Assembly: GCA_014382245.1 (NCBI GenBank)
Contig: JACNKC010000077.1
Span: 7,395-71,394 of the forward strand
Length of the DNA: 64,000 nucleotides
Source: Pseudomonadota bacterium
GTDB taxonomy: Bacteria > Desulfobacterota > Binatia > UBA1149
Direction: 5' to 3'
The notes beneath the pieces are model-generated. The model did no database searches and was not told the DNA's origin. It was given only the letters and a program-made list of their open reading frames with translations. Positions 3,581 to 53,515 of this stretch are shown here, in pieces. How positions within the stretch are numbered: the stretch's first letter is position 1; every line of letters starts with the position of its first letter. A program made the position numbers and the translations under genes.

Positions 3581-3592
3581 GTGCTACCCTGT

Positions 3593-4039: not shown

Positions 4040-4096
4040 CAGCACCGGGTCTGTTTACACTGGGAGCTAGTCGGCTGAACCGGCCTTACTGGAGAT

Positions 4097-5386: not shown

Positions 5387-5388
5387 CC

Positions 5389-6099: not shown

Positions 6100-6109
6100 A
6101 GGGGGAGAA

Positions 6110-6382: not shown

Positions 6383-6384
6383 TC

Positions 6385-29565: not shown

Positions 29566-29641
29566 GGCGGCGTGCCCAAGTGGTTAAGGGAGAGGTCTGC
29601 AAAACCTCCATTCAGCGGTTCGAATCCGCTCGCCGCCTCCA
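29566..29641 (+). tRNA. tRNA-Cys (anticodon GCA)
   Basis: Acceptor GGCGGCG / CGCCGCC, then T, then CCA. Anticodon stem-loop GAGGT-CTGCAAA-ACCTC. T-arm AGCGGTTCGAATCCGCT. Confidence 0.85.
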
Positions 29642-29696
29642 TCCTTATTCTGATGAGCCGCAGTGGCGGCTTGGTTTCTGCAGTGACGGGCAGGAC

Positions 29697-30443: not shown

Positions 30444-30504
30444 CAGCTATTGTCATTTGCTGTGGTCGGTGAGTCAACGCTGGCTGGCAAAACAGGCACC
30501 CCAG

Positions 30505-30591
30505 GCCGGGATGGCGGAACTGGTAGACGCAGGGGACTTAAAATCCCCTGGGCGTAAGCCCGTCCGGGTTCAACTCCCGGTCCCGGCACCA
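30505..30591 (+). tRNA. tRNA-Leu (anticodon TAA)
   Basis: 87 nt with a long variable arm. Acceptor GCCGGGA / TCCCGGC, then A, then CCA. Anticodon loop CTTAAAA in a GGGGA/TCCCC stem. Confidence 0.85.
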
Positions 30592-30600
30592 TTATTTCAA

Positions 30601-30985
30601 TGACTGACTGGACTTCCCCCGGTTCTGTGGACAGAAGGATGGTATGCCCCGGGTTTCCCGGAGTCCGATTATTGGAATTTGGTGCTGCTCTCCATAGGAG
30701 GGCACCATGGGCAGACGGGGATATACATCGGAGTTTCGGCGTCCCGTACTCGAGTTGATCGGTACCGGGCGACCAGTGCGAGAGGTCGCCGGCGATCTCG
30801 GGATCAGCGAGCAGACGATCTACACGTGGAGGCGCCAGGATCGGATCGACCGGGGGTTGGAGCCGGGCCTGGCCTCGACCGAGCGTGCAGAATTGGTCGC
30901 CGCCCGAAAGCGTGTGCGCGAGTTGGAGACCGAGCTGGCAGTGCACCGACGCGCAGCCGAGTTGCTCAAGGAGAAGGCCCGCCCA
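30601..30985 (+). mobile_element. IS3-family insertion-sequence remnant (left end plus orfA only)
   Basis: A putative left inverted repeat TGACTGACTGGACTTCCCCC sits at 30601-30620, directly after tRNA-Leu. The 30707-30983 ORF encodes an IS3 OrfA-like HTH/leucine-zipper protein (MGRRGYTSEFRRPVLELIG...DLGISEQTIYTWRRQDRIDRG...RKRVRELETELAVHRRAAELLKEKA). There is no orfB and no right inverted repeat. Confidence 0.6.
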
Positions 30986-31621
30986 AAAGCAGGTACGCGG
31001 CAGCAGCCATACTCGGAGGCATTGTCAGGCGATCCGGCAGCTGATGGCTACGTGCTGCTGGTGGATCAGAAGGGCCCACGTATTGTAGCCGACAACATTG
31101 CACTCACCAACGAACTTCGAATTGATCCGACCGGGCAGTACCTCTACCTTGCTGAGTCGATGGCGAGCCGTATCCTGCGATTTCCGATTCTGGAAGATGG
31201 AGGCCTCGGTGAGAGAGAGATTGCCGGCCCGGATGTGTTCGGCCCGGCTGACTGGCCAGACGGTATCGCATTCGATGCCGAAGGTAACCTCTGGATTACA
31301 TTTTTTACCACCAATGAATTGAAGATATTAACGCCCGGGGGTGACGTACATACGGTTTTCAGTGACCGGCAGACTGAGGCCGTTGAACTCGTGGCCAGGG
31401 AATTCGCTGCGAGAGACATGTCCATCCCGGACGTGTTTGCCTGTGCCGGTCCACGCGTCGGACTGTGCGCCAGCGTAAATTTTGGTGGCCCGGACCTGCG
31501 AGATGTCTACATCGGTTCGCTGGCCATGGACCGGGTACTCACGTTTCGCTCACCCGTTCCCGGTCATCCCATGCCGCATTGGAATCGGTATATTAATATG
31601 GAGAAAACCCCGGTGGCGTAA
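30986..31621 (+). pseudogene. 5'-truncated SMP-30/gluconolactonase/LRE-like gene fragment
   Basis: The C-terminal SGL motifs DGIAFDAEGNLWIT and GGPDLRDVYIGS are present, but the N-terminal roughly one-third of the family is missing. It is read in-frame with the IS3 orfA fragment as a single 304-aa chimeric ORF (30707-31621). Confidence 0.55.
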
Positions 31622-37651: not shown

Positions 37652-37798
37652 TTTGATCGCCTGGCTGCAGAACCGTGAACTCGTGAAAGGGATTATAATC
37701 TTGGCGACAATCCTGCAAGAGCCCCCGTGACCGTCTGAACTGCAACAGGCGGAATGTAACAGATTGACGAAGTGTGTCCAATTTGTTAGATTCAGCAC

Positions 37799-38476
37799 GT
37801 GGACGGGAAACCAGGCTTCTTGAAGGAGAATCCCGCGGCGCCGGGAAATCGCTTGCTGCCGACCGAGGGCCAGCTGCGGACCGGCCCCTTCGCGCGCGGG
37901 ACCGTACGCGAGGCTACACGGGAACGTATTCTTGAGGGCGCCATGAAAGCAGTGTCCAGCCACGGACTCTCCAAGCTAGAAATGACCGATGTCAGCGCCA
38001 GCGCCGGGGTTTCCCGGGGCACGCTGTACCGATACTTCTCGAACCGGGAGGAGTTGCTTCACAGCCTCACTATTCGCGAAGCCCAGGACTTCTGGAAGCG
38101 CTGCGTGGAGGCGCTGGAGGCCTGCGAGAGGGATGACGAGCGCCTGAAGTTGCTGATGCTTCACGCCACCCGCTACGTCAGTGACCACGCCGCCCTGCAA
38201 CGCTTACTTGAGACCGACCCGGCCTTTGTCCTTTGCTCGCTCAGGCAGAGTTTTACCTCGGTGCGCGACGAGCTGGGGAGACTGCTCGCGCCGGCCCTGG
38301 AGAACAGCGGGCCGGTAAAAGCAGGCGTTGTTTCGGTGGACCAGCTGGTGGATTGGCTGACACGCATTCTCGTCACCACTTACCTCTTTCCGATCGAAGA
38401 CAGCGCTGCCATGGAGAGCGCCATGGAGTCCATGCACGGCCTGCTGGTCGGGCTGAGAGGATCTGATGAAGCGTGA
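37799..38476 (+). CDS. TetR/AcrR family transcriptional regulator (head of the oxidative cluster)
   Basis: HTH ...GLSKLEMTDVSASAGVSRGTLYRYFSNREEL. The start may be downstream of 37799. Confidence 0.78.
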   Translation: MDGKPGFLKENPAAPGNRLLPTEGQLRTGPFARGTVREATRERILEGAMKAVSSHGLSKLEMTDVSASAGVSRGTLYRYFSNREELLHSLTIREAQDFWKRCVEALEACERDDERLKLLMLHATRYVSDHAALQRLLETDPAFVLCSLRQSFTSVRDELGRLLAPALENSGPVKAGVVSVDQLVDWLTRILVTTYLFPIEDSAAMESAMESMHGLLVGLRGSDEA

Positions 38477-39419
38477 CTTTCCTTTTCCGCTGCCGAACGG
38501 TTGGTTCCAGGTAGCGTGGTCGGACGAACTTGCTCGCGGTGAGCTCAAGCGACTGAAGTACTTCGGGAAAGAACTCGTGCTTTACCGTGGCGAAAACGGC
38601 AACGCGCACGCGCTTGACGCCTACTGCCCCCATCTCGGTGCCGACCTTGGTTGCGGGGGCAGGGTCGTGGGCAACAACCTCCGCTGCCCATTCCACCACT
38701 GGGAATTCGACGGTGACGGAGCATGTGTCGAGATACCTTACGCGAACAGGATTCCACCGAAAGCGTCGCTGAAATCCTGGCTGGTAGTAGAGAAAAACGG
38801 CATGATATACGCCCACTACCACCAGCAGGGAGAGGCTCCCGTCTTTGACGTACCCGACCTGCCCGAGTTTGGTGATGAGCAGTGGACCCCGTTTATCAAG
38901 CGGGACTTCATCGTCCGTAGCCGCAACCAGGAGCTGGCCGAGAACACCTGCGACCCGGCTCACTTCAAGTACGTGCACGGCACCGCCGGGCTGCCTACCG
39001 CCGAAGCCGATTTCGATGGCCCACTGCTCAAGGTCAAGCTGGACTACCCCATAGAAACCCGGAGCGGTGAGAAGCACGGTGAGGTTTCGATCTGCAGCTG
39101 GGGCTACGGCATAGGCATCACGCGCTTCACCGGCATAGTAGAAACTACCGTGTTCGTCGGCGGCACCCCGGTGGACGACGAATACGTCCACAATCGCATG
39201 TCTTTCACCCTCAAGAAACTGGACAGCGACGAAGCGACGAAGGCTGTGGGTGAAGCTTTTGTCAACGAGATCTCGCGGCAGTTCACCGAGGACATCCCGA
39301 TCTGGGAAAACAAGATTTACCTTGACCGTCCACTACTCTGCGACGGCGACGGCCCGATAGCCGTCATGCGCAGGTGGGGGCAGCAATTCTATTCGCCGTC
39401 GCCCGGGAGCTCCACGTGA
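38466..39419 (+). CDS. Rieske [2Fe-2S] non-heme iron oxygenase, alpha-subunit-like (KshA/phthalate-dioxygenase-like), copy 1
   Basis: Rieske site CPHLGADLG...CPFHHW (CxH-x17-CxxH). Mononuclear iron motif DPAHFKYVHG (D-x2-H-x4-H). Length 317 aa. Overlaps the TetR 3' end by 11 nt. Confidence 0.83.
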   Translation: MKRDFPFPLPNGWFQVAWSDELARGELKRLKYFGKELVLYRGENGNAHALDAYCPHLGADLGCGGRVVGNNLRCPFHHWEFDGDGACVEIPYANRIPPKASLKSWLVVEKNGMIYAHYHQQGEAPVFDVPDLPEFGDEQWTPFIKRDFIVRSRNQELAENTCDPAHFKYVHGTAGLPTAEADFDGPLLKVKLDYPIETRSGEKHGEVSICSWGYGIGITRFTGIVETTVFVGGTPVDDEYVHNRMSFTLKKLDSDEATKAVGEAFVNEISRQFTEDIPIWENKIYLDRPLLCDGDGPIAVMRRWGQQFYSPSPGSST

Positions 39420-40411
39420 GCAATGAAGACCGATGTTCTTCCCGCGGGCGTGATTCCAACAGGTACCCTTTTCCGGCTTATCCCAACGGCTGGTTTCGCG
39501 TCGCCTATTCGGACGAACTTCGTGCGGGACAGGTCCTATCGCTGGAGCTGTTCGGCACGCGGCTGGTGGCCTTCAGGACCGTGCAAGGAACCCCGTTCGT
39601 GCTGGACGCTTATTGCCCGCACATGGGAGCCGACATGGGGGTGGGCGGTCGCGTAGACGGTGAGGCCCTGCGCTGTCCTTTCCACGACTGGCTGTGGAGT
39701 GGCGACGGCCGTTGCCTGGAGGTCCCTTACGCCAGTCGTATCCCGGCCAGGGCCATGACCAGGGCCTTCGAGGTTGTCGAGAAAAACGGCATACTCATGG
39801 CCTGGTGGCACTCTGAAGGCGAAGCGCCGCAGTGGCAGGTGCCCGACGTGGACGCGTTCTCCTCGTCCGGATGGCGCGAGCCCGTAGTAAAACACTGGAA
39901 AGTAAACGCCCGCTGGCTGGACATGAACGAAAACTGCGTTGACCAGGCCCACTTTCGCTACATACACGGCACCCTGGCTATTCCCGCCACCCAGGCCTCT
40001 CATGACGGTCACGTCTTCAGGGCGGAGTCTCACATTCGCCAGAAAGCCCCGGGGGGAGAAGCCGAGGGCTGCCTGGTCACCGTCGACCACGGACCCGGAT
40101 TCCAGGTCGTCACCCTCGCCGGGCTTATCGATACAGTGCTCTTGAACACCGCCACCCCCATGGACGAGGAAACCACCGACGTCAGCTTCATGTACACGGT
40201 GAAAACCGAGGGGCACCCGCGTAAGGAAAAACTGGCCGCCGCGGTCGTCGATGACCTCGTAACCCAGTTCCACAACGACCTGCCCATATGGGAAAACAAG
40301 TCATACTGGAGCCGGCCTATGCTCTGCGACGGTGATGGCCCCATAGGCGAATACCGGGACTGGATGAAGCAATTCTTTACAGAAGCGCCGGGAAAGGAAA
40401 AAACGCCATGA
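39416..40411 (+). CDS. Rieske [2Fe-2S] non-heme iron oxygenase, copy 2 (tandem paralog)
   Basis: The N-terminus NRYPFPAYPNGWFRVAYSDE parallels copy 1. Motifs CPHMGADMG...CPFHDW and DQAHFRYIHG. The start GTG 39416 overlaps the upstream TGA (GTGA). Confidence 0.83.
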   Translation: MSNEDRCSSRGRDSNRYPFPAYPNGWFRVAYSDELRAGQVLSLELFGTRLVAFRTVQGTPFVLDAYCPHMGADMGVGGRVDGEALRCPFHDWLWSGDGRCLEVPYASRIPARAMTRAFEVVEKNGILMAWWHSEGEAPQWQVPDVDAFSSSGWREPVVKHWKVNARWLDMNENCVDQAHFRYIHGTLAIPATQASHDGHVFRAESHIRQKAPGGEAEGCLVTVDHGPGFQVVTLAGLIDTVLLNTATPMDEETTDVSFMYTVKTEGHPRKEKLAAAVVDDLVTQFHNDLPIWENKSYWSRPMLCDGDGPIGEYRDWMKQFFTEAPGKEKTP

Positions 40412-41526
40412 AAGATTACAAGGTCATTGACTGTGACCAGCACGTCATCGAACCGCCCGAGCTCTGGGAAGAGTGGCTGCCGAAGGAATTCGCGGACCGG
40501 GCGCCGCGCCTGGTCAAGGACGAGGACGGCGGGGACGCGTGGTTGCTCGGCGAGCACAAGGAGGCGATCGGCTTGGTAGCGGCCAAGGGTGTTTCGCCCA
40601 AGGATCTCAAGTGGACCGGCACCCGCTACGCCGATTTGCACCCTGGCATATTTCGCTCGGCCGAACGGCTCGAACTGATGGACGAGGACGGCATTGACGC
40701 GGCGGTTTTCTTTCCCCCCCAACGCACGATGATCTACTTCATGACGCTGAAAGACGCCGAATTCCATCTAGCGGGCATGCGCGCGTATAATGATTTTATA
40801 AGCGACTGGGTATCGGTAGACCGGAGCAGGCTCGGGGCTATCTGGCAGATGCCGGCAACGGGTGCCGACGACGCGGCAGCCGAGCTACGCCGGGCTGCCG
40901 CTGCCGGGGCCGTGGGTGTGGGGCTGGCTTCCTGGCCCAGTGGTGAAATGGTTCTCTCTGCTGCCGACGATCCGTTCTGGGCTGTCGCCGACGAACTGAA
41001 GATGCCGGTGCACGTCCACATCGGCCTCACGCCGGCGAGGCAACCGGTAAAGCGCGTTGCCGCACGCAAAGGTGGGGCCGCGCAGCTCGTCCTGTTGGCA
41101 GGCACGATGTCACGTATGCCCTTGATAATCGCCGAGATGATATTCAACGAAGTATTCGACCGTTTCCCGGGCCTGGTCATGGTCGGTGGGGAAGTCGGAG
41201 CGGGCTGGGTTCCTTACCTTCTCAGTGAAATGGATGACCGTTACCGGCGTAACCGTTACTGGTGCGATGTAAACCTGGAACTGGAGCCGAGCGAATACTT
41301 CCAGCGTAACTGGAAGGTGGGTTTCCTGAGGGATCCCTACGGCGTGCGCAACTGTCGCGACGTTGGTGTTGAAAACATGATGTGGTGCAGTGACTTCCCC
41401 CACCACATCAACGACTGGCCCAACTCCGGCCAACTTATAGCTGAAATGAGCAAAGGCGTAGACGCGGATGACGCCAGGAAGTTATTCTGCGAAAATGCAG
41501 GTCGGCTCTACGGCTTTACCACCTAG
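40408..41526 (+). CDS. amidohydrolase-2 family protein (ACMSD/LigW-like metal-dependent hydrolase/decarboxylase)
   Basis: MKDYKVIDCDQHVIEPPELW at the N-terminus and ...WCSDFPHH... at the C-terminus are typical of PF04909. The ATG overlaps the upstream stop (ATGA). Confidence 0.8.
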   Translation: MKDYKVIDCDQHVIEPPELWEEWLPKEFADRAPRLVKDEDGGDAWLLGEHKEAIGLVAAKGVSPKDLKWTGTRYADLHPGIFRSAERLELMDEDGIDAAVFFPPQRTMIYFMTLKDAEFHLAGMRAYNDFISDWVSVDRSRLGAIWQMPATGADDAAAELRRAAAAGAVGVGLASWPSGEMVLSAADDPFWAVADELKMPVHVHIGLTPARQPVKRVAARKGGAAQLVLLAGTMSRMPLIIAEMIFNEVFDRFPGLVMVGGEVGAGWVPYLLSEMDDRYRRNRYWCDVNLELEPSEYFQRNWKVGFLRDPYGVRNCRDVGVENMMWCSDFPHHINDWPNSGQLIAEMSKGVDADDARKLFCENAGRLYGFTT

Positions 41527-41554
41527 GCTCGATAGCAGAAGGATATACAGAAAA

Positions 41555-42763
41555 ATGGCTGGAAATGATTTCGATCCTGGCGAGCTGAGTCTTTTCGACC
41601 CGCGTTTCATAAGCGACCCCCACCCGGTGTACCGAAAGGTTCGCGCGCAATGCCCGGTGGCGGTCGACCCCTTTGCAGGCAACCCCATGCTGACGCGACA
41701 CGAAGACATCGCCGATGCCCTGCGCACGCCCGGTGTCTACTCCTCGGGTATGGACGCCACTGCGCTGGGCAACCAGCGCCCGCTGATCCCGCTGCAGGTC
41801 GACCCCCCGTTGCACACCGAATACCGTAAGCTGCTCGACCCCCGTTTTTCGCGGGCGCGCGTGCGCGAACTCGAAGGAGACGTCCGTCAGCTCGCCGGCC
41901 GCTTGGTCAATGACTTTGTTGAAAACGGACGTTGCGAATTCAACAGCGAATTCGCGATCCCGTTTCCCTGCTCCGTGTTCCTCGGCCTCATGGGGCTGCC
42001 CTTGGAAGATCTCGACACCTTCCTGGCGCTGAAAAACGGTATTATCAGGCCGCCGGCTACGGACCAGCAAGACGCCGAGGCAGCGCGTGAAAGAGCAGCC
42101 AGGAAGATAGACGATTACTTCACCCGCGCGCTGGCCAGGAAGAAAAAGAACCCCGGCGAAGATCTCATGAGTTGGTTCCTTGGCGCTGAGATCGAGGGAC
42201 GCAAGCTCACCCACGACGAGGTACTCGGGATTTGTTTTCTTTTCCTGCTGGGCGGCCTCGACACTGTCACGGCAACCCTGGGTTGCTCGGTTGAGTGGTT
42301 GGCGCGTAACCCGGTGGATCGCGCAAGGTTGGTCGCCGACCCGTCGCTGCTACCCGGGGCTGTTGACGAGTTGTTGCGTTTTCACACGCCGGTGGTCGGC
42401 GTAGCCAGGGTCCTGCGGCGGGGGGTTACCCTGGGCGGTCACGAGTACGAAGCGGGACAACCCATCACCCTGTTGCTGGGCTCAGCTAACACAGACAGCG
42501 ACGCCTTCAAGGAAGGCGACAGCGTAAAATTTGACCGGGAGCCCAATCCCCACCTGGCCTTCGGTGCCGGACCCCACCGTTGCCTGGGCTCCCACCTGGC
42601 TCGAATGGAATTAAAAATAGCTCTCGAAGAACTGCACAAGCGTATTCCCTCCTACGCTATAGCCGACGGCGAGAAGGTTCGCTTCGGCTTGGCCATTCGC
42701 GAAGTAGAATGCCTCCCGTTGGTGTTTCCTCCCGGAATCCGAACCCAGGCCGATGCGTCCTAG
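41555..42763 (+). CDS. cytochrome P450
   Basis: Heme-thiolate loop FGAGPHRCLGSHLARMELKIAL. I-helix and ExxR are present. An AAGGA SD precedes ATG 41555. Length 402 aa. Confidence 0.9.
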   Translation: MAGNDFDPGELSLFDPRFISDPHPVYRKVRAQCPVAVDPFAGNPMLTRHEDIADALRTPGVYSSGMDATALGNQRPLIPLQVDPPLHTEYRKLLDPRFSRARVRELEGDVRQLAGRLVNDFVENGRCEFNSEFAIPFPCSVFLGLMGLPLEDLDTFLALKNGIIRPPATDQQDAEAARERAARKIDDYFTRALARKKKNPGEDLMSWFLGAEIEGRKLTHDEVLGICFLFLLGGLDTVTATLGCSVEWLARNPVDRARLVADPSLLPGAVDELLRFHTPVVGVARVLRRGVTLGGHEYEAGQPITLLLGSANTDSDAFKEGDSVKFDREPNPHLAFGAGPHRCLGSHLARMELKIALEELHKRIPSYAIADGEKVRFGLAIREVECLPLVFPPGIRTQADAS

Positions 42764-44028
42764 TGCGGCTGTTGCTGGACCAAACCCGTTGCGTGGGGCA
42801 CGGCCGCTGCTACGAACTCGCGTCCGGCCTGTTCGGCGAAGACGATCGCGGGCACTGCGTGTTGCTGGCGAGCGAGGCCGACTGCGATGACGAGGGGGCC
42901 AGGAAAGCGATCGCCAATTGCCCCGAGGGCGCTATATCCATGGCCCAGGATGGTCACGCTGAAGCAGACACCTGGGACCTCTTCTGCGATCGCCTCAAGG
43001 AAGCCGGAAAGGTCATCAGCGAGGCTCGCGCGCCCGGCGACGAGCTGACAAGGGCCGAAGGATATCGATACTTGTCCCGACTGACCCGGCTCGCGCTTGA
43101 AAAACACCTTGAGCACGCCGATCCGGCAGCGCCGACTTTCTACAGTCTCAGCCACGAAACGGCCAAGATCGGCTGCGATAACCCGGATAGTTTTTACCAG
43201 AATGCCGTACTCGATGGGCAATTCGAATACCGAGTCAGCGGCACGCGCGGCACGGCCGCCTACCTGGGCATAGGCGCTTATTATGGCAACTACGGCAGCG
43301 ACGCGCCGTCCGGCTGCAGCGGCTATCTCGAAGGAGCGCAACTGGAATTGGATGAGCAGGGCGGTTTCGAGCTTTTACTGGGTGGCGAGAAGAAGCCTGG
43401 CAACTGGATCGCCTTGCGCCCGGACAGCTCAATGCTCATCGTCAGGCAGGTGTTCCTGGATCGGGTCAACGAGGCCGCGGGCAATCTGGCCATTGAGCGA
43501 ACCGGCGGCAATTCACCGCGCATGCTGGACATAACCGCGTTGGAAGATGGATTGGATGCCGCCGCGGCTTTTGTTAAAGGCACCGCGGTGATGTTTGCCG
43601 AGTGGGCCGAGGAGTTCGAACGCTGCCCCGGGGAGCTCATCGCCATGGACAGTGCCCGTACCGCGGGTGCCCACGGGGATCCAAACATTTCGTTTTACAT
43701 GGGCGCGTGGCAACTGGAAGAGGGCGAAGCGCTGCTGGTCGAGCTAGTCGCACCGCCTTGCCTGTACTGGAACTTCCAGTTGAACAATCACTGGATGGAG
43801 TCGCTCGATTACCGTTGGCAGCGCATCCACGTCAACTCGCATGATGCAGTAGAAGACTCGGACGGGGTAGTCCGGATCGTGATCAGCCCGAGCGACCCCG
43901 GTTTGCCTAACTACCTGCACACCAGCGGCCACGGTCACGGAACCATGGGTTTAAGGTGCATCAAGGGGCGAGCTCCGTTCTCGATCCAGACGAAACGCTG
44001 CCGTATTTCCGAGCTCGGGGGTGTTTAA
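42763..44028 (+). CDS. ferredoxin (3Fe-4S/4Fe-4S type) fused in-frame to a DUF1254/DUF1214 domain protein
   Basis: GTG 42763 overlaps the P450 TAG (TAGTG). The first roughly 65 aa, VRLLLDQTRCVGHGRCYELASGLFGEDDRG...DCDDEGARKAIANCPEGAI, match the C-x5-C...CP P450-partner ferredoxins. No stop precedes the roughly 350-aa DUF1254 (DNPDSFYQNAVLD) and DUF1214 (GNWIALRP...LIVRQVF; GLPNYLHTSGHG) part. Confidence 0.65.
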   Translation: MRLLLDQTRCVGHGRCYELASGLFGEDDRGHCVLLASEADCDDEGARKAIANCPEGAISMAQDGHAEADTWDLFCDRLKEAGKVISEARAPGDELTRAEGYRYLSRLTRLALEKHLEHADPAAPTFYSLSHETAKIGCDNPDSFYQNAVLDGQFEYRVSGTRGTAAYLGIGAYYGNYGSDAPSGCSGYLEGAQLELDEQGGFELLLGGEKKPGNWIALRPDSSMLIVRQVFLDRVNEAAGNLAIERTGGNSPRMLDITALEDGLDAAAAFVKGTAVMFAEWAEEFERCPGELIAMDSARTAGAHGDPNISFYMGAWQLEEGEALLVELVAPPCLYWNFQLNNHWMESLDYRWQRIHVNSHDAVEDSDGVVRIVISPSDPGLPNYLHTSGHGHGTMGLRCIKGRAPFSIQTKRCRISELGGV

Positions 44029-44112: not shown

Positions 44113-45225
44113 TCAGTTCTCCTGCGAAAAACCCGTCCGTCCCTCACCGGGAGGCGCGAGGTCGAGAAGCCCGGCCAAAAGATTAGTGCAGGTATTATTC
44201 AGCTCGAAAGCGTAGCCAGCGGCTTCATCCATCAGCTCGTAGCGCACCAGTTGTTGAGAAATCCGCATCATGATCACCGAAAATCGAAAACCCGCAAACA
44301 CCTCCCAGTAGTGGAGGTCTCCCAGTTCTCTGCCCGCGCAGCGCTGGTAGTATTCAAGCGATTCTTCGTAGGAGCAGAAACCCTCGAGCCGCGGGGTAGA
44401 GATGCCCTCGCTGTGATGACGGTCCAGGAAGATACCCCAGGCCACGTCCTGCTCCGCGGTGCCGATGCAGGCCATCTCCCAGTCGAGTACGGCGGCGGGG
44501 CGACAATCGTCATCGAAAATAACGTTGCCGATACGGGCATCTCCCCAGGACACAACGGGGTGATCAACCGCTGGGGCGTTCTTTCGTAACCACTCACGGG
44601 CCACCTCCACTACTGGTTGCTCTCGGCCGCGCGAGGCCCAGTGAAAAAAATCATCGTAGTTGTCCAGCTGTGCCTGCAACACGTCCGATGAGCCAGCACC
44701 CGCGAGAAAATCGAAGCCCATGTTTTTCCAATCGAGACTGTGCACCCCGGCCATGCACTCAAAGCCCCCCAGCCATACCTGGTTGCGTTCTTTCGGCGAG
44801 AGTTCATGCAACCAGCCTTCGCTGTGGTAGGGCGGGTTATCACCAGGGACACGGCCTTTTACGTGTCGCATCACGTAAAACGGAGCGCCGAACACCGACT
44901 GGTCGTCGTTTTCGGTCCACAAGACCGACGGCACCGGCACCGGGCTATCGGCGAGCTTTTGCATACACAAATATTGCAGCGAGAGGTCGTAGTCCGGAAA
45001 CACAGTGAAGCCTTGTGGCTGAATGCGTACAACGCAGCTTTCACTCTGCCTGCCATCGTCCCAGGTGACATCGCAGAGCAGCGTGTCGTTCGAGAAGCCA
45101 GAAGAAGCGGGCGAAACGAGTTCACTCACTAACAGTTTTTGGGGGCGATCCAGCTTGCGATCCAGCCAGCCATAAAATTGCGCCCGGTCTCGGTCGAGAT
45201 CTCGCTGCCACATGGTCGGCATCGC
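44113..45225 (-). CDS. phosphotransferase family protein (APH/choline-kinase-like fold)
   Basis: Brenner/catalytic region ...VVSWGDARIGNVIFDDD...AVLDWEMACIGTAEQDVAW. The start is uncertain (ATG 45225 or 45216; ORF-track start 45276). Confidence 0.72.
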   Translation of the reverse strand, partial: AMPTMWQRDLDRDRAQFYGWLDRKLDRPQKLLVSELVSPASSGFSNDTLLCDVTWDDGRQSESCVVRIQPQGFTVFPDYDLSLQYLCMQKLADSPVPVPSVLWTENDDQSVFGAPFYVMRHVKGRVPGDNPPYHSEGWLHELSPKERNQVWLGGFECMAGVHSLDWKNMGFDFLAGAGSSDVLQAQLDNYDDFFHWASRGREQPVVEVAREWLRKNAPAVDHPVVSWGDARIGNVIFDDDCRPAAVLDWEMACIGTAEQDVAWGIFLDRHHSEGISTPRLEGFCSYEESLEYYQRCAGRELGDLHYWEVFAGFRFSVIMMRISQQLVRYELMDEAAGYAFELNNTCTNLLAGLLDLAPPGEGRTGFSQEN

Positions 45226-45235
45226 GGTAGCTTCC

Positions 45236-46039
45236 TCAGCGGTCCCAGGCGATGTTTTGACCCCACGAGGAGCCAAGCATCGCCGCCGGCGTGTTCTTGT
45301 TTATGTGGCCGATAAGGCCGCCGTAGATTCCGTATCCCACGAGTTCCTGCAAGCGCGGATCAAAGTCGCGCACCCTCTCCCGGGGAATGCCCAGTTGTTG
45401 GTTTTCCTGCTGCCGTATGTAGCCGGCACAATAGTTCATGGCGACCCCCAACCTGGCCCCATCGCTGGCGTTACGTCCACCACCGTGCCACATGGAACCG
45501 TTCCACAGCAACACGTCACCCCGCTTCATTTCCGCGGCAACGGTTTCAAGCGGGACGCCGTACTCCGGAACGTCCTCGCGCAGGTGAGAGCCCGGTATGA
45601 TACGAGTGGCCCCGTTCAGCTCGGTAAACTCGGTCAGTGCCCACATGGTGTTACAGACCAGGGCCGGGTGGGGACGCGCAATAGGAATGAGCTGGTCATC
45701 GGCGTGCAGGGGTTGGGCTAATTCACCGGGTAGTATTTTGATCGACGACAAGGACGACACCAGGCAGCCGCTGTCGAGGACGCCTTCAACGACAGGCAAC
45801 ACGGCTGGGTGTACTGGTATTTTCTCAAAAACCGGGTCAAGGGCCAGCAAGTTGTAGATTCTCAGCGTGTTGACACCTTCGAAATCGTTACCGGCGGGCT
45901 CGACAGATAATTCCTTCTCGAGGCGGCTGACGGCGGCTTCAATTTCGTCTATCAACCCTGGATCAACCGAGTCTTCAACAACGGTGTAACCCTGCTTTTC
46001 TACCCTCGCGAGGTGCGCAGCTATTTCGGTTTCGCTCAA
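45236..46039 (-). CDS. phytanoyl-CoA dioxygenase (PhyH) family Fe(II)/2-oxoglutarate oxygenase
   Basis: PhyH motifs ...PLHADDQ... (H-x-D), ...IIPGSHLRE... and ...GSMWHGGGRN. The proposed start TTG 46039 overlaps the TGA of the DIO-like gene (TTGA); GTG 46087 is an alternative. Confidence 0.75.
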   Translation of the reverse strand: MSETEIAAHLARVEKQGYTVVEDSVDPGLIDEIEAAVSRLEKELSVEPAGNDFEGVNTLRIYNLLALDPVFEKIPVHPAVLPVVEGVLDSGCLVSSLSSIKILPGELAQPLHADDQLIPIARPHPALVCNTMWALTEFTELNGATRIIPGSHLREDVPEYGVPLETVAAEMKRGDVLLWNGSMWHGGGRNASDGARLGVAMNYCAGYIRQQENQQLGIPRERVRDFDPRLQELVGYGIYGGLIGHINKNTPAAMLGSSWGQNIAWDR

Positions 46040-46785
46040 CTGGCCACTGCCTGTTCGCGAGAATAGGAGGAGATAGCCTCTTCCCACTCGGCCGGTAGGA
46101 AGAACATGGGACCGGGCCCGCTCTTGTAAACCACGCTACCGTCCAATCCGACCAGCGCCAGGCGTTCGGGAATCGCGTTCCACGCGTTCGATACGGCATT
46201 GTCCATGCCATCAACGAGGGCTGGCGGCTCAAGCGCGGTTTGTAACATGCACGCCTGGCCAGCGTCTATCCTCTGGTCGATGCTCGTGGGTTGGGTAAAA
46301 ACTACACCGTCTGCAAGGTTCTCGTCCACCTGCCAGCCATCGCTCGGGTGAATTTCCTTGATGTAAACAACGTAAAAATCGACCTGGTCTTTCCAGCGAC
46401 GGTAGATCTCGTTAACGGCACCAGCCTGGTACCGGAAGGGCGGTCAAGTGTAGCTGCCAAAAACGAGAGCGACCGGCCGTTTGCCGAAATGATCTGAGAG
46501 GGTGACCGCCGGACCGTCCTTGTCGTTGAGCCGAGCGAGAGTGAAGTCAGTCGCAGCCTGTCCGGCCTGCAGCGATCCCGGCTCGGCCGCCATGGATTCG
46601 GTCAGGTGCTGGGCCGACAGGGGATTCTCCATCGCCGCGGCCAAGCGCCCCCAGCCTTCTTCGCCCAGCTCTGCATCTACGGCCTTGAAATTGAGTCCCT
46701 GCTGTTCTGCCAGGGCCTGGACCAGTTCCCGAATTTTTGCTGTTTCCATGGGGCCTAATCTGAGACAGGGGTCGGCCTCTTGCAA
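46036..46785 (-). CDS. iodothyronine-deiodinase-like thioredoxin-fold selenoprotein (in-frame UGA = selenocysteine)
   Basis: Two same-frame ORFs (46444-46785 and 46036-46329) are separated only by TGA 46444-46446. Reading through gives ...KRPVALVFGSYT-U-PPFRYQAGAVNEIYRRWKDQVDFYVVYIKEIHPSDGWQV...VDGMDNAVSNAWNAIPERLALVGLDGSVVYKSGPGP..., collinear with the vertebrate deiodinase core (FGSxTUPPF; VYIxEAHPSDGW; DRMDN...YG; GGKGP). The start is TTG 46785 or ATG 46749. Confidence 0.72.
46416..46434 (-). other. candidate bacterial SECIS hairpin downstream of the UGA
   Basis: The mRNA reads UGA-CCGCCCUUC-[CGGUACC-AGGCU-GGUGCCG]. This is a 7-bp stem (one G-U pair) with a 5-nt loop, starting 10 nt after the UGA, within the positional window of bacterial SECIS elements. 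Confidence 0.4.
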
Positions 46786-46814: not shown

Positions 46815-47792
46815 TCAGGCTGTTTCAGCCTGGGCGCTGATGCCCGCTACAGTCAGACCTGCCTGCTCGAGCAAGCGGCGGTCAGCGCCGGTGTCGGGAT
46901 TACCGGTGGTCAGCAGTTTCTCGCCAAAGAAAATCGAATTTGCGCCCGCCATGAAGCACAACATCTGGGCTTCTTCTGAGAGGCGGCTGCGGCCTGCTGA
47001 CAGCCTGACCACTGAAGCCGGCATCAGCACCCTGGCGCAGGCCACCATGCGCACCAACTCCAACGCTTCCACCGGTTCGCGGTCGCCCAGGGGTGTGCCC
47101 TTTACCGGCACCAGCGCGTTGACCGGCACGCTCTCCGGGTGCCTGGGCAGGTTGGCCAGTTCGACCAGCATGGCGCAGCGATCGTTGATGCTTTCGCCCA
47201 TCCCGATTATGCCGCCGCAACACACGTTAATACCGGCTTCGCGAACGTGGGCTAGTGTTTCGAGTCGTTCATCAAAGTTGCGGGTCGTGATGATCTTGTC
47301 GTAGTACTCGCGGGAAGTGTCGATGTTGTGGTTGTATGACGTAAGTCCGGCATCCTTGAGCTCGCCCGCCTGCTCGGCGTTGATCATGCCCAGGGTCACG
47401 CAGCTCTCCATGCCGAGGGAGTTGACCCCACGCACCATGTCGAGGACCGAGTCGAACTGGCTGCCCGAACGTACGTCCCGCCACGCGGCCCCCATGCAGA
47501 AACGGGTTGCGCCGGCGTCCCTGGCCTCCGACGCCGAGGCCAGGACAGCCTCTACGTCGATCAGCGCCTCGTTCTCAACGTCGGCCTCGTAGTGAGCGCT
47601 CTGGGGACAGTAGGAACAGTCCTCGGGGCAACCGCCCGTCTTGATTGAAAGCAGCGAACAGAGCTGAACCTGCCTGGGGTCGTGGTGCTGGCGGTGTATG
47701 CCCTGGGCCAGGTAGAGCAGCTCGCTCAGGGGCGTGTCGTGGATCTCGCGGGCTTCGGCCACCGCCCAGTCGTGTCTAAGTCCTTCGGTCAT
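46815..47792 (-). CDS. bioB: biotin synthase
   Basis: Radical-SAM CPEDCSYC plus the BioB-specific C-terminal region. Length 325 aa. Confidence 0.93.
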
Positions 47793-49410: not shown

Positions 49411-50160
49411 TCAGGTGAACAGGTCGTCTTCGGGCGGCCGAAGGAGCTCAATGGCACTGCCGGCACCCAGTTCGGCGCCGCTACCTCGCACCAGTACGGC
49501 CGGCACTCCAGCATCCTTTTTCATGGCAATACCGGCTGCGGCAGCCAGCTGGTCGGCGACCGCGAGGGATGTGTGCTCGAGGGTTCTTCCCGTCCAGTCA
49601 CGGCCGCCCTCCCTGTTGTCGACGGGCAACAAGCCCGCGCAGCCTATGGCCAGGTCGATCTGCCCCAATCTCCAGGCGCGGCCGAAGGTATCCGAAATGA
49701 TCACGCCGACCTGCGCTTCGTAGTGGACAGCAAGCCGCGACATCAGTCGGAGCGCCGACTTGTCCGAATCTTCGGGCAGGAGGGTAGCGTCGCCCTCGAC
49801 GGCCTGGTTTGAGCAGTCAACGCCCGAGTTGGCGGCAACAAAGCCGGGACCGGTGCGAGTGATGAGATGCCCGTCCTTCTTGCGCAGGATTTGGCTCGCT
49901 TCGAGTAGCGCCAGCTCTACGACGGCCGGGTCCTTATCGTGCGCATTGGCAAACTCAAGGGCCTCGTCCGAGGGCTCGACCTCGGACAGCTTGCGTACCC
50001 TTCCTTCGGCCCGTGACACGACCTTCTGGCATACGACCAGGACGTCGCCGGATTTTACGCCGACCTTCTGCTTGTCGATAGCATCGATGAGCAAGGCGGC
50101 GAGATCGTTCCCAGGCAGGACCATGGGGACGCCTTCGATGGGTATCAACATGGTTACCAT
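49411..50160 (-). CDS. cofE: coenzyme F420-0:L-glutamate ligase
   Basis: 249 aa. ...GVKSGDVLVVCQKVVSRAEGR..., ...VAANSGVDCSN... and ...IISDTFGRAWRLGQIDLAIGCAGL match the F420_ligase family (PF01996). Confidence 0.8.
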   Translation of the reverse strand: MVTMLIPIEGVPMVLPGNDLAALLIDAIDKQKVGVKSGDVLVVCQKVVSRAEGRVRKLSEVEPSDEALEFANAHDKDPAVVELALLEASQILRKKDGHLITRTGPGFVAANSGVDCSNQAVEGDATLLPEDSDKSALRLMSRLAVHYEAQVGVIISDTFGRAWRLGQIDLAIGCAGLLPVDNREGGRDWTGRTLEHTSLAVADQLAAAAGIAMKKDAGVPAVLVRGSGAELGAGSAIELLRPPEDDLFT

Positions 50161-50161
50161 T

Positions 50162-51130
50162 TCAGCGTTCCGTCCCGCCGAGCGGTATCTTCAAGAGAAA
50201 CCGCGCGAGTGCCAGCGAACGCCGCTTACTATTCAGCAGGGTGTTGCGCTCAAGCAGGCGGGGCCAGGTGGCTTCAGGCCGCCGTGGTGCGTCCCCGGGC
50301 GAAACGACCAGCGACGTCGCGAGGCCCTCGTAAAAGTCTGCTATGCCAGCGCTTCCTCGACCCGCACCAAGGCTTTTCATCATAGCGACCAAGGGGCCCT
50401 TCACCGCCCGACCATTGACCAGTGGACTGACCGCAATGGTCTTGCGGCACACGGCCCCCAGCGCTGCGCGTAGACCCGGAATCGCAAGCATGGGCGCAAT
50501 GCTTACGTAGGGGTTGCTGGGAGCGATTATTACCTTGTCGGCCGATGCCAGGGCCTCGCTGACCCCGGGCGCCATGCTGGCCCCGGACGCGCCCTTGTAA
50601 GTGATGCCGTCCACCCTCGGGCGGGCGCCTTGCTTGACGAACCACTCCTGGAAGGCAAAACGGCGTCTACCCGACCTGAGCACGGTACGCACCGGGTCGT
50701 TGCTCATGGGCAATACCGAGGTCCGAATACCCAGTTGTGTGCAGATTCGCCGGGTAGCCTGGGCAAGAGAGGAGCCCTCTCTCAACAAGTGGCTACGGTA
50801 AATGTGAAGGGCGAGGTCCTGGTCGCCAAGCGAGAACCATTGGTCACCGAAATAACGACCCAGCCAGGGCAGGGCGTTCCGGGTATCGCCGCGTATACCC
50901 CAGCCCCTCTTGATCGGGGCAAGCCCGGCCAGTGTGTACGCCACCGTGTCGAGGTCCGGAGATACCTGCAGTCCATAAAAACTCTCGTCGTCTCCCGTGT
51001 TGACGATCACGGTCAACCTGCGGGGATCAACGACTTCAGCGAGTCCCCTAAGGAGTCGGCAGGCTCCCACTCCACCCGCCAGCAGGGTGATTCGTGGGTT
51101 GGCCGGCAAGGCGTCCATCATCGCTTTCAT
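50162..51130 (-). CDS. cofD: 2-phospho-L-lactate transferase (LPPG:FO transferase)
   Basis: ...ITLLAGGVGACRLLRGL...VIVNTGDD... matches the CofD/UPF0052 N-terminal motif. The annotated start overlaps the cofH 3' end by about 80 nt; the real start is unresolved. Confidence 0.78.
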   Translation of the reverse strand: MKAMMDALPANPRITLLAGGVGACRLLRGLAEVVDPRRLTVIVNTGDDESFYGLQVSPDLDTVAYTLAGLAPIKRGWGIRGDTRNALPWLGRYFGDQWFSLGDQDLALHIYRSHLLREGSSLAQATRRICTQLGIRTSVLPMSNDPVRTVLRSGRRRFAFQEWFVKQGARPRVDGITYKGASGASMAPGVSEALASADKVIIAPSNPYVSIAPMLAIPGLRAALGAVCRKTIAVSPLVNGRAVKGPLVAMMKSLGAGRGSAGIADFYEGLATSLVVSPGDAPRRPEATWPRLLERNTLLNSKRRSLALARFLLKIPLGGTER

Positions 51131-52304
51131 CCAACAGCTCGTACAGGGTGTTCCGTTGCCGGGGTTCTCTACCCCGCGACATGATCATGCTCCTGAGTTC
51201 ATCGGCCGAAGTGTACTCTCCTGAATCCGCACCCGCTTCGCGCGAGATGCTCTCTTCCATCAGGGTGCCGCCAACATCATTGCAACCCGCGTCGAGACTC
51301 AGGGTTGCCAACTCGCGACCGAGCTTGACCCAGGAACTCTGCAGGTTATCAACCAGCCCGTCCAGCATCAGTCGGCTGGTTGCGTACACGGCTATGTCGA
51401 GACGCCCCTGTGGCACCGGGGATACCAGGCCCTCGGCGTAAAGCTGGGTGTTCTGCCAGATAAAACGCAAGGGTACGAACTCGCTGAGTCCACCGGTGTT
51501 GCGCTGGATGCCGCGCAGTACCTCGATGTGTTCGGCCATGTGCCGCGGTGTTTCCAAGTGGCCGTAGAGCATGGTGGAGGTCGTAGGCAAACCCACCTCG
51601 TGGGCGGTGGTCACGATCTCTATCCAGCTGTCGGTGTCGAGCTTGTCGTGGGTAAGGACCTTGCGGATCTCCGGGTCAAAAATTTCCGCGGCGGTACCGG
51701 GCATGGTATTCAACCCCGCTTCGAGGAGTAGCTCGAGATACGGCCGGTAGGCCAGGTTCATTCGATGGGCGCCGTACTGGATCTCCATCGGCGAAAACGC
51801 GTGAATATGAAGGTCGGGGTAGGCCCCGCGCACCGCTCGGAGCAGTTGCAGGTAGCCGTCGTCGGGCATAACCGGGTTGAGTCCACCCTGCATGCATACC
51901 TCGGTAGCTCCCAGCGCCACGCCCTCGCCGATACGGTGGAGAACGTCAGAGACATCGCGGTCGTAAGCCCGGGGACTGTTCTTGAGGTGGGCGAAGGAGC
52001 AGAACTTGCAGCCCACGAAACAAACGTTAGTCCAGTTCACGTTGCGGTTGATGACATAGGTCACCGTATCGCCTACCGCGCGCCGCCTCAGCTCGTCGGC
52101 GACTCCCACGAGGGCGGCCAGCGAATCGCCTTGCAAAGCAAACAGCTCGCTAGCCTCGTCTACGGTCGGCGCTCGGCCGGCCAGCGAACGCTCGAGGATG
52201 GCCGCCAGGCCGGGCGGAGTGGCCGCCAGGCGGTTTTCGAGATCCCGCTGGTCCGCAAAGAGGTACTCGACTCTCTCGGGTGACTGTTCGGTCTGGTAAC
52301 TCAC
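51048..52304 (-). CDS. cofH: FO synthase subunit 2 (7,8-didemethyl-8-hydroxy-5-deazariboflavin synthase), radical SAM
   Basis: CFVGCKFC radical-SAM cluster motif and the CofH-type C-terminal domain. It is a gene separate from cofG. Confidence 0.83.
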   Translation of the reverse strand: MSYQTEQSPERVEYLFADQRDLENRLAATPPGLAAILERSLAGRAPTVDEASELFALQGDSLAALVGVADELRRRAVGDTVTYVINRNVNWTNVCFVGCKFCSFAHLKNSPRAYDRDVSDVLHRIGEGVALGATEVCMQGGLNPVMPDDGYLQLLRAVRGAYPDLHIHAFSPMEIQYGAHRMNLAYRPYLELLLEAGLNTMPGTAAEIFDPEIRKVLTHDKLDTDSWIEIVTTAHEVGLPTTSTMLYGHLETPRHMAEHIEVLRGIQRNTGGLSEFVPLRFIWQNTQLYAEGLVSPVPQGRLDIAVYATSRLMLDGLVDNLQSSWVKLGRELATLSLDAGCNDVGGTLMEESISREAGADSGEYTSADELRSMIMSRGREPRQRNTLYELLDESDDGRLAGQPTNHPAGGWSGSLPTP

Positions 52305-53515
52305 AGGGTTGCACCCCCCTGGGCCGTGATCGCCGCGGGCAGCTCCGCAAAGCGTTCAACCGCCAATCGCATGTCAGGATCCAGGAACTCGTCGTTCACG
52401 TACTCAGGATAAACCGGCAAGCGGGGCTCGAGTTCGAAACCCAGCCCGGAACAGGTCTGCGCCAGGTCTTCTAGATGAGGCCAGGGGTCGCCGGGGTTAA
52501 CGTAGTCCGCGGTCACCGGAGAGATGCCACCCCAATCGTTTATACCGGCATTAACCAGGCGCGCGTGCCCCTGGGGGCTGAGGTTGGGCGGTGCCTGGAT
52601 GTTCATAGCTGGTCCCAGGATCAGGCGGGCGATCGCCACGCAGCGTATGAACTCGTCTTCTGTCGGTTCCGGAAATCCGCTCATCGGCGTGGAGTCCTTG
52701 TGCCTGAAGTTCTGTATGATGACTTCCTGCAGGTGACCGTACTGCTCGTGTAATCGGCGCAATTCGAGGAGGCTCGCGATTCTTTCAGCCTCGGTTTCAC
52801 CAATGCCCACGAGGATGCCGCTGGTGAAGGGTATCCGGAGCTCGCCCGCGTCGGCGATCATGCTGACCCTTGCCGCCGGATCCTTGTCGGGCGCAAACTG
52901 GTGAGGCATTCCTCGTGCGCGCAAACGGGGGCTGACATTCTCGAGCATCAAGCCGAAGCTCACGTTCAGCGGTCGCAGGTTGCGCATCTCATCGTGCGAG
53001 AGCAGCCCCGCGTTGGTGTGCGGCAGCAGATCTGCTTCGAGGGCCAGCGAGCAGGCAAGGCCCACGTACTCGGCCGTGCTCGCGGCTCCCCATCGTTCGA
53101 GCTCGGCACTGAACCCGCGAAAAGCGATCTCGGGTTTGTCGCCAAGGCACATGAGGGCTTCTATGCAGCCGGCTGCTTTACCCCGTTCAGACCACTGGCG
53201 GATCTCGTCAGGGGTCATGGTCCATTCGCCTGCCTCGCCGGGATCCCGGCGAAAGGTGCAGTACGTACACCTGTCCCGGCATAGATTGGTCACAGGGAGA
53301 AAGACCTTCGGGGACCAGGTGAGCACTCGGTCCCGATCGCGGTCGCGCTGCCGGCAGGCCAGCTCACAGATTTCTGCGGTCAGGGACCACTCGCGGTCGC
53401 CGTCAGCACTCCCGCGGGGACTGCCAGCGTGCAGAAGGGCATAAGCATCGTCGTCGCCCAGGCGCTCAAAAGCGCGGGCCCTGGCGAGCGCCCTGTCTAG
53501 AGGATTACCGACCAT
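52301..53515 (-). CDS. cofG: FO synthase subunit 1, radical SAM
   Basis: Motifs ...VFLPVTNLCRDRCTYCTF... The start overlaps the cofH start region by 4 nt. Confidence 0.83.
   Translation of the reverse strand: MVGNPLDRALARARAFERLGDDDAYALLHAGSPRGSADGDREWSLTAEICELACRQRDRDRDRVLTWSPKVFLPVTNLCRDRCTYCTFRRDPGEAGEWTMTPDEIRQWSERGKAAGCIEALMCLGDKPEIAFRGFSAELERWGAASTAEYVGLACSLALEADLLPHTNAGLLSHDEMRNLRPLNVSFGLMLENVSPRLRARGMPHQFAPDKDPAARVSMIADAGELRIPFTSGILVGIGETEAERIASLLELRRLHEQYGHLQEVIIQNFRHKDSTPMSGFPEPTEDEFIRCVAIARLILGPAMNIQAPPNLSPQGHARLVNAGINDWGGISPVTADYVNPGDPWPHLEDLAQTCSGLGFELEPRLPVYPEYVNDEFLDPDMRLAVERFAELPAAITAQGGATL

Follow-up and report, generated by a model that had tools for sequence, protein, structure and literature searches.

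An in-frame TGA in a deiodinase-family gene of a probable Binatota genome is very probably read as selenocysteine

The DNA analysed here (the window) comprises 64,000 nucleotides (nt) of contig JACNKC010000077.1 and contains, on its minus strand, a reading frame of 237 codons with a single internal TGA. The frame runs from an ATG at 46749-46747 to a stop codon at 46038-46036, and the internal TGA at 46446-46444 stands in the context FGSYT-TGA-PPFRYQ. The N-terminal part of the coding sequence (46447..46749, minus strand; 101 codons, METAKIR...LVFGSYT) was determined by translation, alignment to the homologue P0001 and gene calls, and the C-terminal part (46039..46443, minus strand; 135 codons, PPFRYQ...AVAS) by translation and the signature of purifying selection. 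Between the two, the TGA at 46444..46446 (minus strand) is the proposed codon for selenocysteine (Sec102); it aligns with the catalytic selenocysteine (Sec) of the deiodinases Dio2 and Dio3, and with Cys in most bacterial homologues. According to the gene calls, the true stop codon of the selenoprotein gene is the TGA at 46036..46038 (minus strand), which overlaps the TTG start codon of the next gene (TTGA).

The list of open reading frames (ORFs) divides the gene between 46444-46785, which begins at an upstream TTG, and 46036-46329. A preliminary description of this DNA had reported two minus-strand ORFs in one frame, separated by one TGA at 46444-46446. Coordinates and peptides were re-derived and were correct, and the read-through translation is ...RPVALVFGSYT*PPFRYQAGAVNEIYRRWKDQVDFYVVYIKEIHPSDGWQV...VDGMDNAVSNAWNAIPERLALVGLDGSVVYKSGPGP..., as written there. 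Of the span 46036-46785 given for the gene, frame and TGA were confirmed, and the start was revised: the ATG at 46749-46747 (METAKIR...) is likelier than the TTG at 46785. The ATG start aligns with the N-terminus of P0001, the closest full-length homologue, and the same start was called in two assemblies (L123/L129, 101 amino acids [aa]). The first in-frame ATG, GTG or TTG after the TGA is the GTG at 46329, 38 codons downstream. Since there is no start codon in between, the 38 codons PPFR...HPSDGWQ are absent from both ORF calls. In the public assemblies (L122, L123, L126-L129), every gene caller split the gene into two hypothetical ORFs, of 101/113 aa and 97 aa. Only the 97-aa ORF carries a weak Pfam flag for T4_deiodinase, and the 38 codons, the best-conserved of the family, are in neither ORF.

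Residues 1-60 of the read-through product form a helical, charged N-terminal extension without a hydrophobic anchor; the helices were taken from an AlphaFold2 (AF2) model of the orthologue P0001. After residue 60, N-terminal strands similar to those of peroxiredoxins (Prx) are followed by the active-site lead-in FGSYT. The C-terminal part holds the Dio-specific insertion YIKEIHPSDGW (Tyr129, Glu132, His134, Trp139) as well as Arg160, Cys167, Asp180, Pro194-Glu-Arg196 and Gly213-Pro214.

Orthologues with the same TGA were searched with a degenerate DNA pattern in a contig collection containing one genome per species, and at least 120 loci carry FGSYT-TGA-PPF. As the pattern catches only Sec forms with exactly FGSYT-U-PPF, the locus numbers given here are minimum values; the genome of the window is not represented among the loci. 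In BLASTP, all 121 read-through products were homologous to the window protein, with alignments that span the TGA. Among the matches listed, Acidobacteriota form the majority, and Planctomycetota, Chloroflexota/Dehalococcoidia, Alphaproteobacteria, Myxococcota, Verrucomicrobiota, Gaiellales and others are present; one match is the cultured Acidobacteriaceae bacterium KBS 83 (L023). L001 is an independent orthologue, in which an N-terminally truncated database protein (P0005) extends upstream through FGSYT-TGA-PPFR. TGA is likewise found in the closest relatives (L001, L092 and L036), whereas Cys occupies the site in most of 30 database homologues. A comparison of close orthologues, which the preliminary description had suggested, gave either TGA or Cys at the site.

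A few database proteins have another residue in the Sec/Cys column, namely Trp (P0006, P0104, P0125, P0151) or Arg (P0007, P0164). As TGG and CGA/AGA are one step away from TGA, these proteins may be inactivated derivatives, sequencing variants or cases in which a pipeline translated TGA under another code.

The region following the TGA was searched for a selenocysteine insertion sequence (SECIS), and a hairpin of the bacterial type was found by folding and family covariation at 46416..46434 (minus strand; +13 to +31 from the U of the UGA). It has the sequence 5'-CGGUACC-AGGCU-GGUGCCG-3' with seven pairs, a folding energy (dG) of -11.9 kcal/mol and an apical loop AGGCU which presents G21 and G22. 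The hairpin is located inside the coding sequence, at codons R106-V112. Covariation was determined for 116 distinct Sec-type genes in a gap-free alignment using 500 shuffles. The helix +14-19/+25-30 was paired in 76.9% of the cells compared to 51.4% after shuffling, and none of the 500 shuffles reached the observed value. Double changes were found for all six helix pairs; pair 19-25, for instance, is GC in 46, CG in 43 and UG in 11 genes. The covariation score was 0.576, versus 0.207 for shuffled alignments and 0.13-0.37 for slid registers. The loop has the family consensus A-G-G-U-U, in which G21 is present in 109/118 genes and G22 in 104/118.

About ten, mostly alphaproteobacterial genes (L008, L010, L021, L026, L068, L103, L104, L109, L120 and L121; first 42 nt after the TGA) have a second SECIS register, in which a stem +19-23/+29-33 (AAGGC/GCCUU-like) encloses the loop CGUGC. 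The pairing percentage of the main model is lowered because these genes are contained in the set.

As a negative control, 38 Cys-type genes were used, namely L125 and 37 genes detected in metagenomes by the same pattern with TGY in place of TGA. The mean number of pairs formed, of six, was 2.87 in Cys-type versus 4.62 in Sec-type genes, and local dG was -6.0 versus -11.0 kcal/mol (Mann-Whitney p = 4e-14). GG at +21/22 was present in 7/38 Cys-type and 97/118 Sec-type genes. Since Cys-type genes are mostly without the hairpin, it is not a by-product of the encoded peptide. In two Cys-type genes, L125 (gene 2289-2996, encoding P0001) and L162 (3214-3240 onward), a SECIS-like hairpin is still almost perfectly formed, including the GG loop; in L125, the Cys codon plus 42 nt reads UGC CCU CCU UUU CGGGCCCAGGCUGGGACCC. 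To judge from their sequences, these hairpins look like 'fossil' SECIS elements, which would imply a recent replacement of Sec by Cys.

The SECIS of Escherichia coli fdhF served for comparison. Both hairpins lie within the ORF, start about 10-11 nt after the UGA and have a small apical loop. In both, the loop contains G-U/G-G about 20-24 nt from the UGA, and the stem sequence is variable if pairing is kept. In contrast to fdhF, the stem of the family is shorter (6-8 pairs), and the window copy is without an obvious bulged U. The features of bacterial SECIS elements were in part used as summarised in PMC1088965. By analogy with the fdhF paradigm, UGA codon 102 would be decoded as Sec with the help of an mRNA hairpin which begins 10 nt past the UGA and exposes GG(C/U) in its apical loop about 20 nt downstream. 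SelB-GTP-Sec-tRNASec would bind to this hairpin and deliver Sec before release factor 2 acts.

The genes for Sec synthesis and insertion were located next to the gene in several relatives. Sec machinery was found within a few kb in 7 of the at least 120 Sec-type loci, in several phyla. Both selA and selB are present at L012, L023, L060, L062, L113 and L120, with scores above the cut-offs (TIGR00474, 592 bits; TIGR00475, 344 bits). At L012, the island consists of the deiodinase-like gene (~2721-3150), selA (3159-4604), selB (4583-6499) and tRNA-Sec (6564-6659), and at L026 of a selB fragment (4407-4712) and tRNA-Sec (4201-4296). Carriers of such islands include the cultured strain KBS 83 (L023) and a metagenome-assembled genome (MAG) of Devosia. 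Chance adjacency to Sec genes would yield far fewer than one such locus. The compact 'Sec island' suggests co-inheritance or co-transfer, and the deiodinase-like protein is perhaps a principal selenoprotein in some genomes.

Three observations count against a reading of the TGA as Sec. First, the stability of the complete 81-nt region is not out of the ordinary (z = -0.49), and the significance of the hairpin derives from the comparison with other genes only. Second, a search of the SECIS region in Rfam gave only matches at chance level, and no family covers the hairpin. Third, no selA, selB, selD or tRNA-Sec is present in the 64-kb window, which is a piece of a genome and thus uninformative for the whole genome. 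ARAGORN and Rfam detected no tRNA-Sec in the window but four ordinary tRNAs, and neither a Pfam scan of 40 long ORFs nor tblastn with SelA/SelB of related loci detected SelA, SelB or SelD; the only protein with an AIRS domain is PurL. The SECIS and the relatives indicate that the source organism is probably Sec-competent. When the window was scanned crudely, by GC content at third codon positions, for further genes with in-frame TGA, 101 candidates resulted without discrimination, and no second selenoprotein can be claimed from them. Taken together, the TGA is very probably read as Sec, as far as can be judged from sequence comparison.

For Pfam and phmmer searches, the read-through product with Cys placed at the TGA was used as query. 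T4_deiodinase (PF00837) matched with 94.6 bits (cut-off 27; E = 7e-27), residues 84-221 aligning with profile positions 95-228. The only strong matches among solved structures were mouse Dio3 (4TR3, E = 1e-20) and Dio2 (9H48, E = 4e-16), and the TGA aligned to the catalytic Sec-to-Cys column of both crystal constructs. NCBIfam NF038285 (deiodinase_rel) gave 174 bits, which is below its curated cut-off of 250 bits, and only profile positions 131-340 of 347 were matched. As nothing in the window protein corresponds to profile positions 1-130, it belongs to a different subfamily or architecture. A structure model was made for P0001, a Cys orthologue with 52% identity over 92% of the query, which stands in for the window protein; its predicted local distance difference test (pLDDT) score is 88.3, with a core above 92. 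In a Foldseek search of the P0001 model against the PDB, Dio2 ranked first (E = 5e-14, TM 0.80) and Dio3 next (E = 2.6e-13). ResA, AhpE and Bcp followed about five orders of magnitude behind (AhpE/Bcp ~1e-7). The window protein contains the Dio-type motif VYIKEIHPSDGW, and its thioredoxin/Prx-like fold was judged from the P0001 model. Membership in the deiodinase family, as proposed in the preliminary description, is thus borne out by the Pfam, structure and fold matches, and the position of the UGA at the catalytic residue by the alignments to Dio2/Dio3 and to bacterial Cys and Sec homologues. Kinship with peroxiredoxins exists at superfamily level only. The family is large: a search of 1.84 billion proteins with its profile yielded 4,628 representative clusters with E ≤ 1e-10, and 741 with E ≤ 1e-30.

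The animal enzymes DIO1-3 and the window protein share the catalytic Sec in FGS-x-T-U-PPF, a thioredoxin/Prx-like fold, the insertion VYIxEAHPSDGW and five residues of the proton relay (Ser/Thr/Tyr/Glu/His). A Trp stacking partner, the strand E/D-R-L-Y-V-I and the turn GxGP are common to both as well, and core identity is 29-32%. The window protein differs in having no N-terminal transmembrane helix and in its bacterial, in-frame SECIS, which in the animal genes is of the eukaryotic type and located in the 3'-UTR. Residue roles, including the selenenyl-sulfide cascade, were assigned from the equivalent Dio residues in the Dio2 structure paper (PMC11592359). Among 122 Sec forms, hardly any variation was found at Ser99, Thr101, Tyr129, Glu132, His134 and Arg196. 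The stacking Trp139 is conserved in the window protein and present in 93/122 forms. Of the proton relay of Dio2 (Ser127, Thr129, Tyr157, Glu160, His162, His182), five of six residues are kept; the sixth is Pro154 here.

The proposed resolving residue of Dio3, Cys239, is also replaced by Pro. Another cysteine, Cys167, lies in the helix that follows the insertion and occurs in 96/122 Sec forms. Across 176 database proteins, Cys167 accompanies Cys102 in 130/154 cases and Ser/Ala102 in 2/10 (Fisher's exact test, p = 3e-5). Since Cys167 co-occurs with Cys102 and is mostly absent when Ser or Ala takes its place, this residue is most likely the resolving partner. Individual proteins with Ser or Ala at the site (e.g., P0020, P0023) are usually without Cys167.

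From these residues, the following reaction cycle is proposed. Within a thioredoxin/Prx-like fold carrying the deiodinase insertion, the selenolate of Sec102 would be activated by the network of Ser99, Thr101, Tyr129, Glu132 and His134 together with Arg196. The selenolate would attack an electrophilic atom of the substrate, forming Se-X or Se-OH, and Cys167 would resolve the oxidised Sec102 to a selenenyl-sulfide. A reductant of the thioredoxin or glutaredoxin type would then reduce the selenenyl-sulfide, completing a Prx-like cycle as proposed for Dio3 and Dio2. We consider it highly probable that 46036-46749 (minus strand) is one gene, encoding a cytoplasmic PF00837 selenoprotein of 237 residues with Sec at UGA codon 102 and such a cycle.

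With respect to the substrate, our tentative guess, held at slightly less than even confidence, is a halogenated phenolic compound other than thyroid hormone, from which iodine or bromine would be removed reductively. The runner-up, a hydroperoxide or another thiol-redox substrate, seems plausible but somewhat less probable. In the first step, either halogen or peroxide oxygen may be attacked. A deiodinase-like substrate site is favoured because the Dio-specific insertion is strongly conserved; a generic redox role is favoured because the clamp is missing, many Cys forms exist and halogen-related context is absent. Several points speak against the dehalogenase guess. The position of Dio2 His182/Dio3 His219 is Pro in 96/122 Sec forms and His in only 13/122. 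The position of Arg275 of the Dio3 substrate clamp is Pro212 in the window protein (family: Pro 63/122, Arg 7/122), whereas the clamp partner His202 is kept as His134 (the clamp also includes Lys241 in Dio2). With Pro for Arg275, thyronine is disfavoured as substrate but family membership is not, and thyroid hormones are not expected as substrate in a bacterium. Replacement of Sec by Cys in Dio enzymes reduces activity ~1000-fold (PMC11592359), yet many family members use Cys. The original authors of the bacterial family predicted only 'a redox function' (PMC1088965). Finally, a conserved neighbour is absent: after clustering of 624 flanking ORFs, none occurred in more than 9 of 121 loci and none was tied to halogen metabolism.

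The same points are compatible with a genuine selenoprotein that functions as Prx-like thiol peroxidase or thiol-disulfide oxidoreductase and has nothing to do with halogens, a possibility which we rate as substantial though short of even. Features in common with PrxQ/BCP, AhpE and TlpA/ResA are a thioredoxin fold that includes an N-terminal beta-hairpin, a nucleophile placed where helix alpha1 starts, and the motif S/T-x-x-C/U. S-x-x-U of the window protein resembles T-x-x-C of peroxiredoxins. Similarly, R196-LxLxxxDG resembles their catalytic Arg motif, in which the Arg precedes the strand R-x-x-F/Y-h-h-D. A distant resolving Cys is known from atypical 2-Cys peroxiredoxins, and interchange of Sec and Cys combined with a resolving-type cysteine such as Cys167 is typical of thiol oxidoreductases. 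The occurrence of the family in many soil and marine bacteria without conserved neighbours is also as for a housekeeping redox enzyme. Weak matches to AhpC-TSA (PF00578; 24.7 bits, threshold 26) and Redoxin (PF08534; 21.2 bits, threshold 26.6) also speak for this reading. However, both are below the Pfam cut-offs, whereas T4_deiodinase is far above its own. Peroxiredoxins lack the ~25-residue deiodinase insertion (YIxEAHPxDGW), which is more strongly conserved in the bacterial family than any other block, and the window protein is without CxxC. This insertion has been described as essential for substrate binding or turnover in Dio (PMC11592359), and the only characterised members of PF00837 are dehalogenases.

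A recent pseudogene, in which a Cys codon (TGC/TGT) mutated to TGA, is very improbable. Such a mutation requires one base, Cys prevails among the database homologues, and the missing Sec machinery in the window would fit it. Against this, the hairpin has the family's GG loop at exactly the family's distance from the TGA, and Cys-type genes are generally without it. Downstream of the TGA, the frame is open for 135 codons, and comparison with L001, L092 and L036, which share the TGA, gave proportions of non-synonymous differences (pN) of 0.26-0.28 and of synonymous differences (pS) of 0.68-0.82, the same regime as upstream. The downstream frame is therefore intact and conserved, as had been stated in the preliminary description, with pN well below pS. 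The same allele was found in four samples: a region of 755 nt is 100% identical in the accessions ERZ24794644, SRR29139952, ERR13319469 and ERZ24794648. The copy in ERZ24794644 is on a 208-kb contig with ~223x coverage which differs from the window elsewhere, and L126 has four other differences to the window in 21 kb. An assembly error as origin of the TGA was ruled out by the identical region in the four samples. The preference of the preliminary description for Sec recoding over nonsense decay was thus upheld by the covarying SECIS, its absence from most Cys-type genes, purifying selection and at least 120 Sec-type orthologues.

Extremely improbable is the assumption of two separate small genes (101/113 aa and 97 aa), or of a TGA translated as Trp or Gly under an alternative code, for which the two ORFs given by gene callers in every assembly and the Trp in a few database homologues could be cited, since the 38 best-conserved codons of the family (26/38 identical to L001) would be untranslated, neither half is a complete thioredoxin fold, and genetic codes 4 and 25 are excluded because TGA is the ordinary stop codon of 33/52 other long ORFs in the window.

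The selenoprotein gene is followed by a gene of 267 aa for a PhyH-family Fe(II)/2-oxoglutarate (2OG) dioxygenase with an H-A-D motif (45236..46039, minus strand; gene calls, Pfam), and then by a gene for an APH-type kinase (44113-45222; gene calls). As the PhyH start overlaps the selenoprotein stop by 4 nt (TTGA), the two genes are probably translationally coupled, to judge from their arrangement. The idea that the PhyH neighbour might be an Fe/2OG halogenase was rejected because its motif is H-A-D (LHADD), as in hydroxylases, and not H-x-A/G. Upstream and on the same strand, bioB (biotin synthase; 46815..47792, minus strand; gene calls) is separated from the selenoprotein ATG by a gap of 65 nt, in which no terminator-like site was found. 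Further upstream of bioB and again on the minus strand, a coenzyme F420 cluster (49411-53515) comprises two radical-SAM CofG/CofH-like genes, CofD and the F420 ligase CofE, followed by a 77-aa ORF and a metallophosphoesterase. On the plus strand, a catabolic-looking cluster (37799-44028) converges on the selenoprotein-PhyH-APH unit; it contains TetR, two tandem KshA-like Rieske oxygenases, Amidohydro_2, P450 and a protein of 421-482 aa with an N-terminal single-cluster ferredoxin domain. Genes for hydantoinase/oxoprolinase A and B (33735-37963, minus strand) lie just before this cluster. The region 29566-31621 contains tRNA-Cys, tRNA-Leu(taa) and an ORF (30707-31621) with an HTH_Tnp_1 N-terminus and a SMP-30/gluconolactonase-like region, which may be the remnant of an insertion sequence that is fused to a host gene or was wrongly joined with it.

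Adjacency to PhyH was found in the window and L029 only, among the 121 loci listed, and in L001 the orthologue is followed by a gene without relation to PhyH. The closest Cys orthologue is preceded by genes for a luciferase-like monooxygenase and a Rieske ring-hydroxylating oxygenase. Combined with the context in the window, this hints at oxidative catabolism, but only weakly. Exact copies of the BioB, PhyH, PurB and PurC proteins of the window exist in a MAG at NCBI (MBC8293165.1, MBC8293162.1, MBC8293129.1 and MBC8293130.1, respectively), and the labels of their cluster mates with > 90% identity are Candidatus Binatota or Deltaproteobacteria bacterium. The host is an uncultured marine organism, probably of the Binatota. 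Since two accessions lie between those of PhyH and BioB and the 97-aa ORF is on record, the NCBI annotation very probably splits the selenoprotein gene.

The novelty implied by the preliminary description does not hold: bacterial deiodinase homologues were described in 2005 from the Sargasso Sea (four Sec and six Cys forms, with bacterial SECIS elements; Zhang, Fomenko and Gladyshev, PMC1088965), and the family is common in the genomes searched here. The authors assumed that it probably has a redox function other than thyroid-hormone metabolism. In 2008, 22 Sec and 21 Cys sequences were counted in the Global Ocean Sampling (GOS) data (PMC2398784), and a later survey noted a fusion to an EF-hand domain (PMC9402790). 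Reviews of 2022 and 2026 list the family among more than 110 prokaryotic selenoprotein families with largely unknown functions (PMC9312934, PMC13188914). The tables in these two reviews give the family motif as 'UxxC', and the GOS table gives '-' (PMC2398784); the window gene and the at least 120 loci have U-P-P-F, with no Cys at +3. In the searchable literature, no experimental work on a bacterial deiodinase-like member or link to a Bmp8-type debrominase was found, and nothing relevant on Binatota and selenocysteine. The earlier statement of an unknown substrate is still correct as far as this literature shows. The window gene shares with the described prokaryotic deiodinase-like selenoproteins PF00837, an in-frame UGA at the position of Cys in homologues and a downstream SECIS with G in a small apical loop; it agrees with the family of Zhang et al. 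in every testable feature. It differs only in its soluble, helical N-terminal extension, where others have a signal peptide, a membrane anchor or TPR/EF-hand fusions, and in its host, a probable Binatota genome in which it is coupled to a PhyH dioxygenase gene.

The correct call of a selenoprotein was reachable from sequence alone. The single gene adds little to a family that was described two decades ago and is frequent in Acidobacteriota, Planctomycetota, Chloroflexota, Alphaproteobacteria and others. Moreover, the copy in the uncultured host makes the function no more testable than that in the cultured strain KBS 83 (L023). Useful by-products are the covariation-supported SECIS consensus of the family, a candidate resolving Cys and the selA-selB-(tRNA-Sec) islands in several phyla. 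The larger question is whether animal thyroid-hormone deiodination originated from a bacterial dehalogenase or from a peroxidase. It is conceivable, although we regard it as unlikely, that the protein is a Se-dependent reductive aryl-halide dehalogenase in aerobic catabolism, which would strip iodine or bromine from marine halophenolics before or after ring oxidation. The coupled PhyH hydroxylase and APH-type kinase genes, the Rieske/P450 cluster that faces them and the oxygenase genes in front of the closest Cys orthologue would be the setting of this activity. If this were true, the bacterial deiodinase-like family would be a widespread class of dehalogenases that work without cofactor and have gone unrecognised, and thyroid-hormone deiodination would descend from it.

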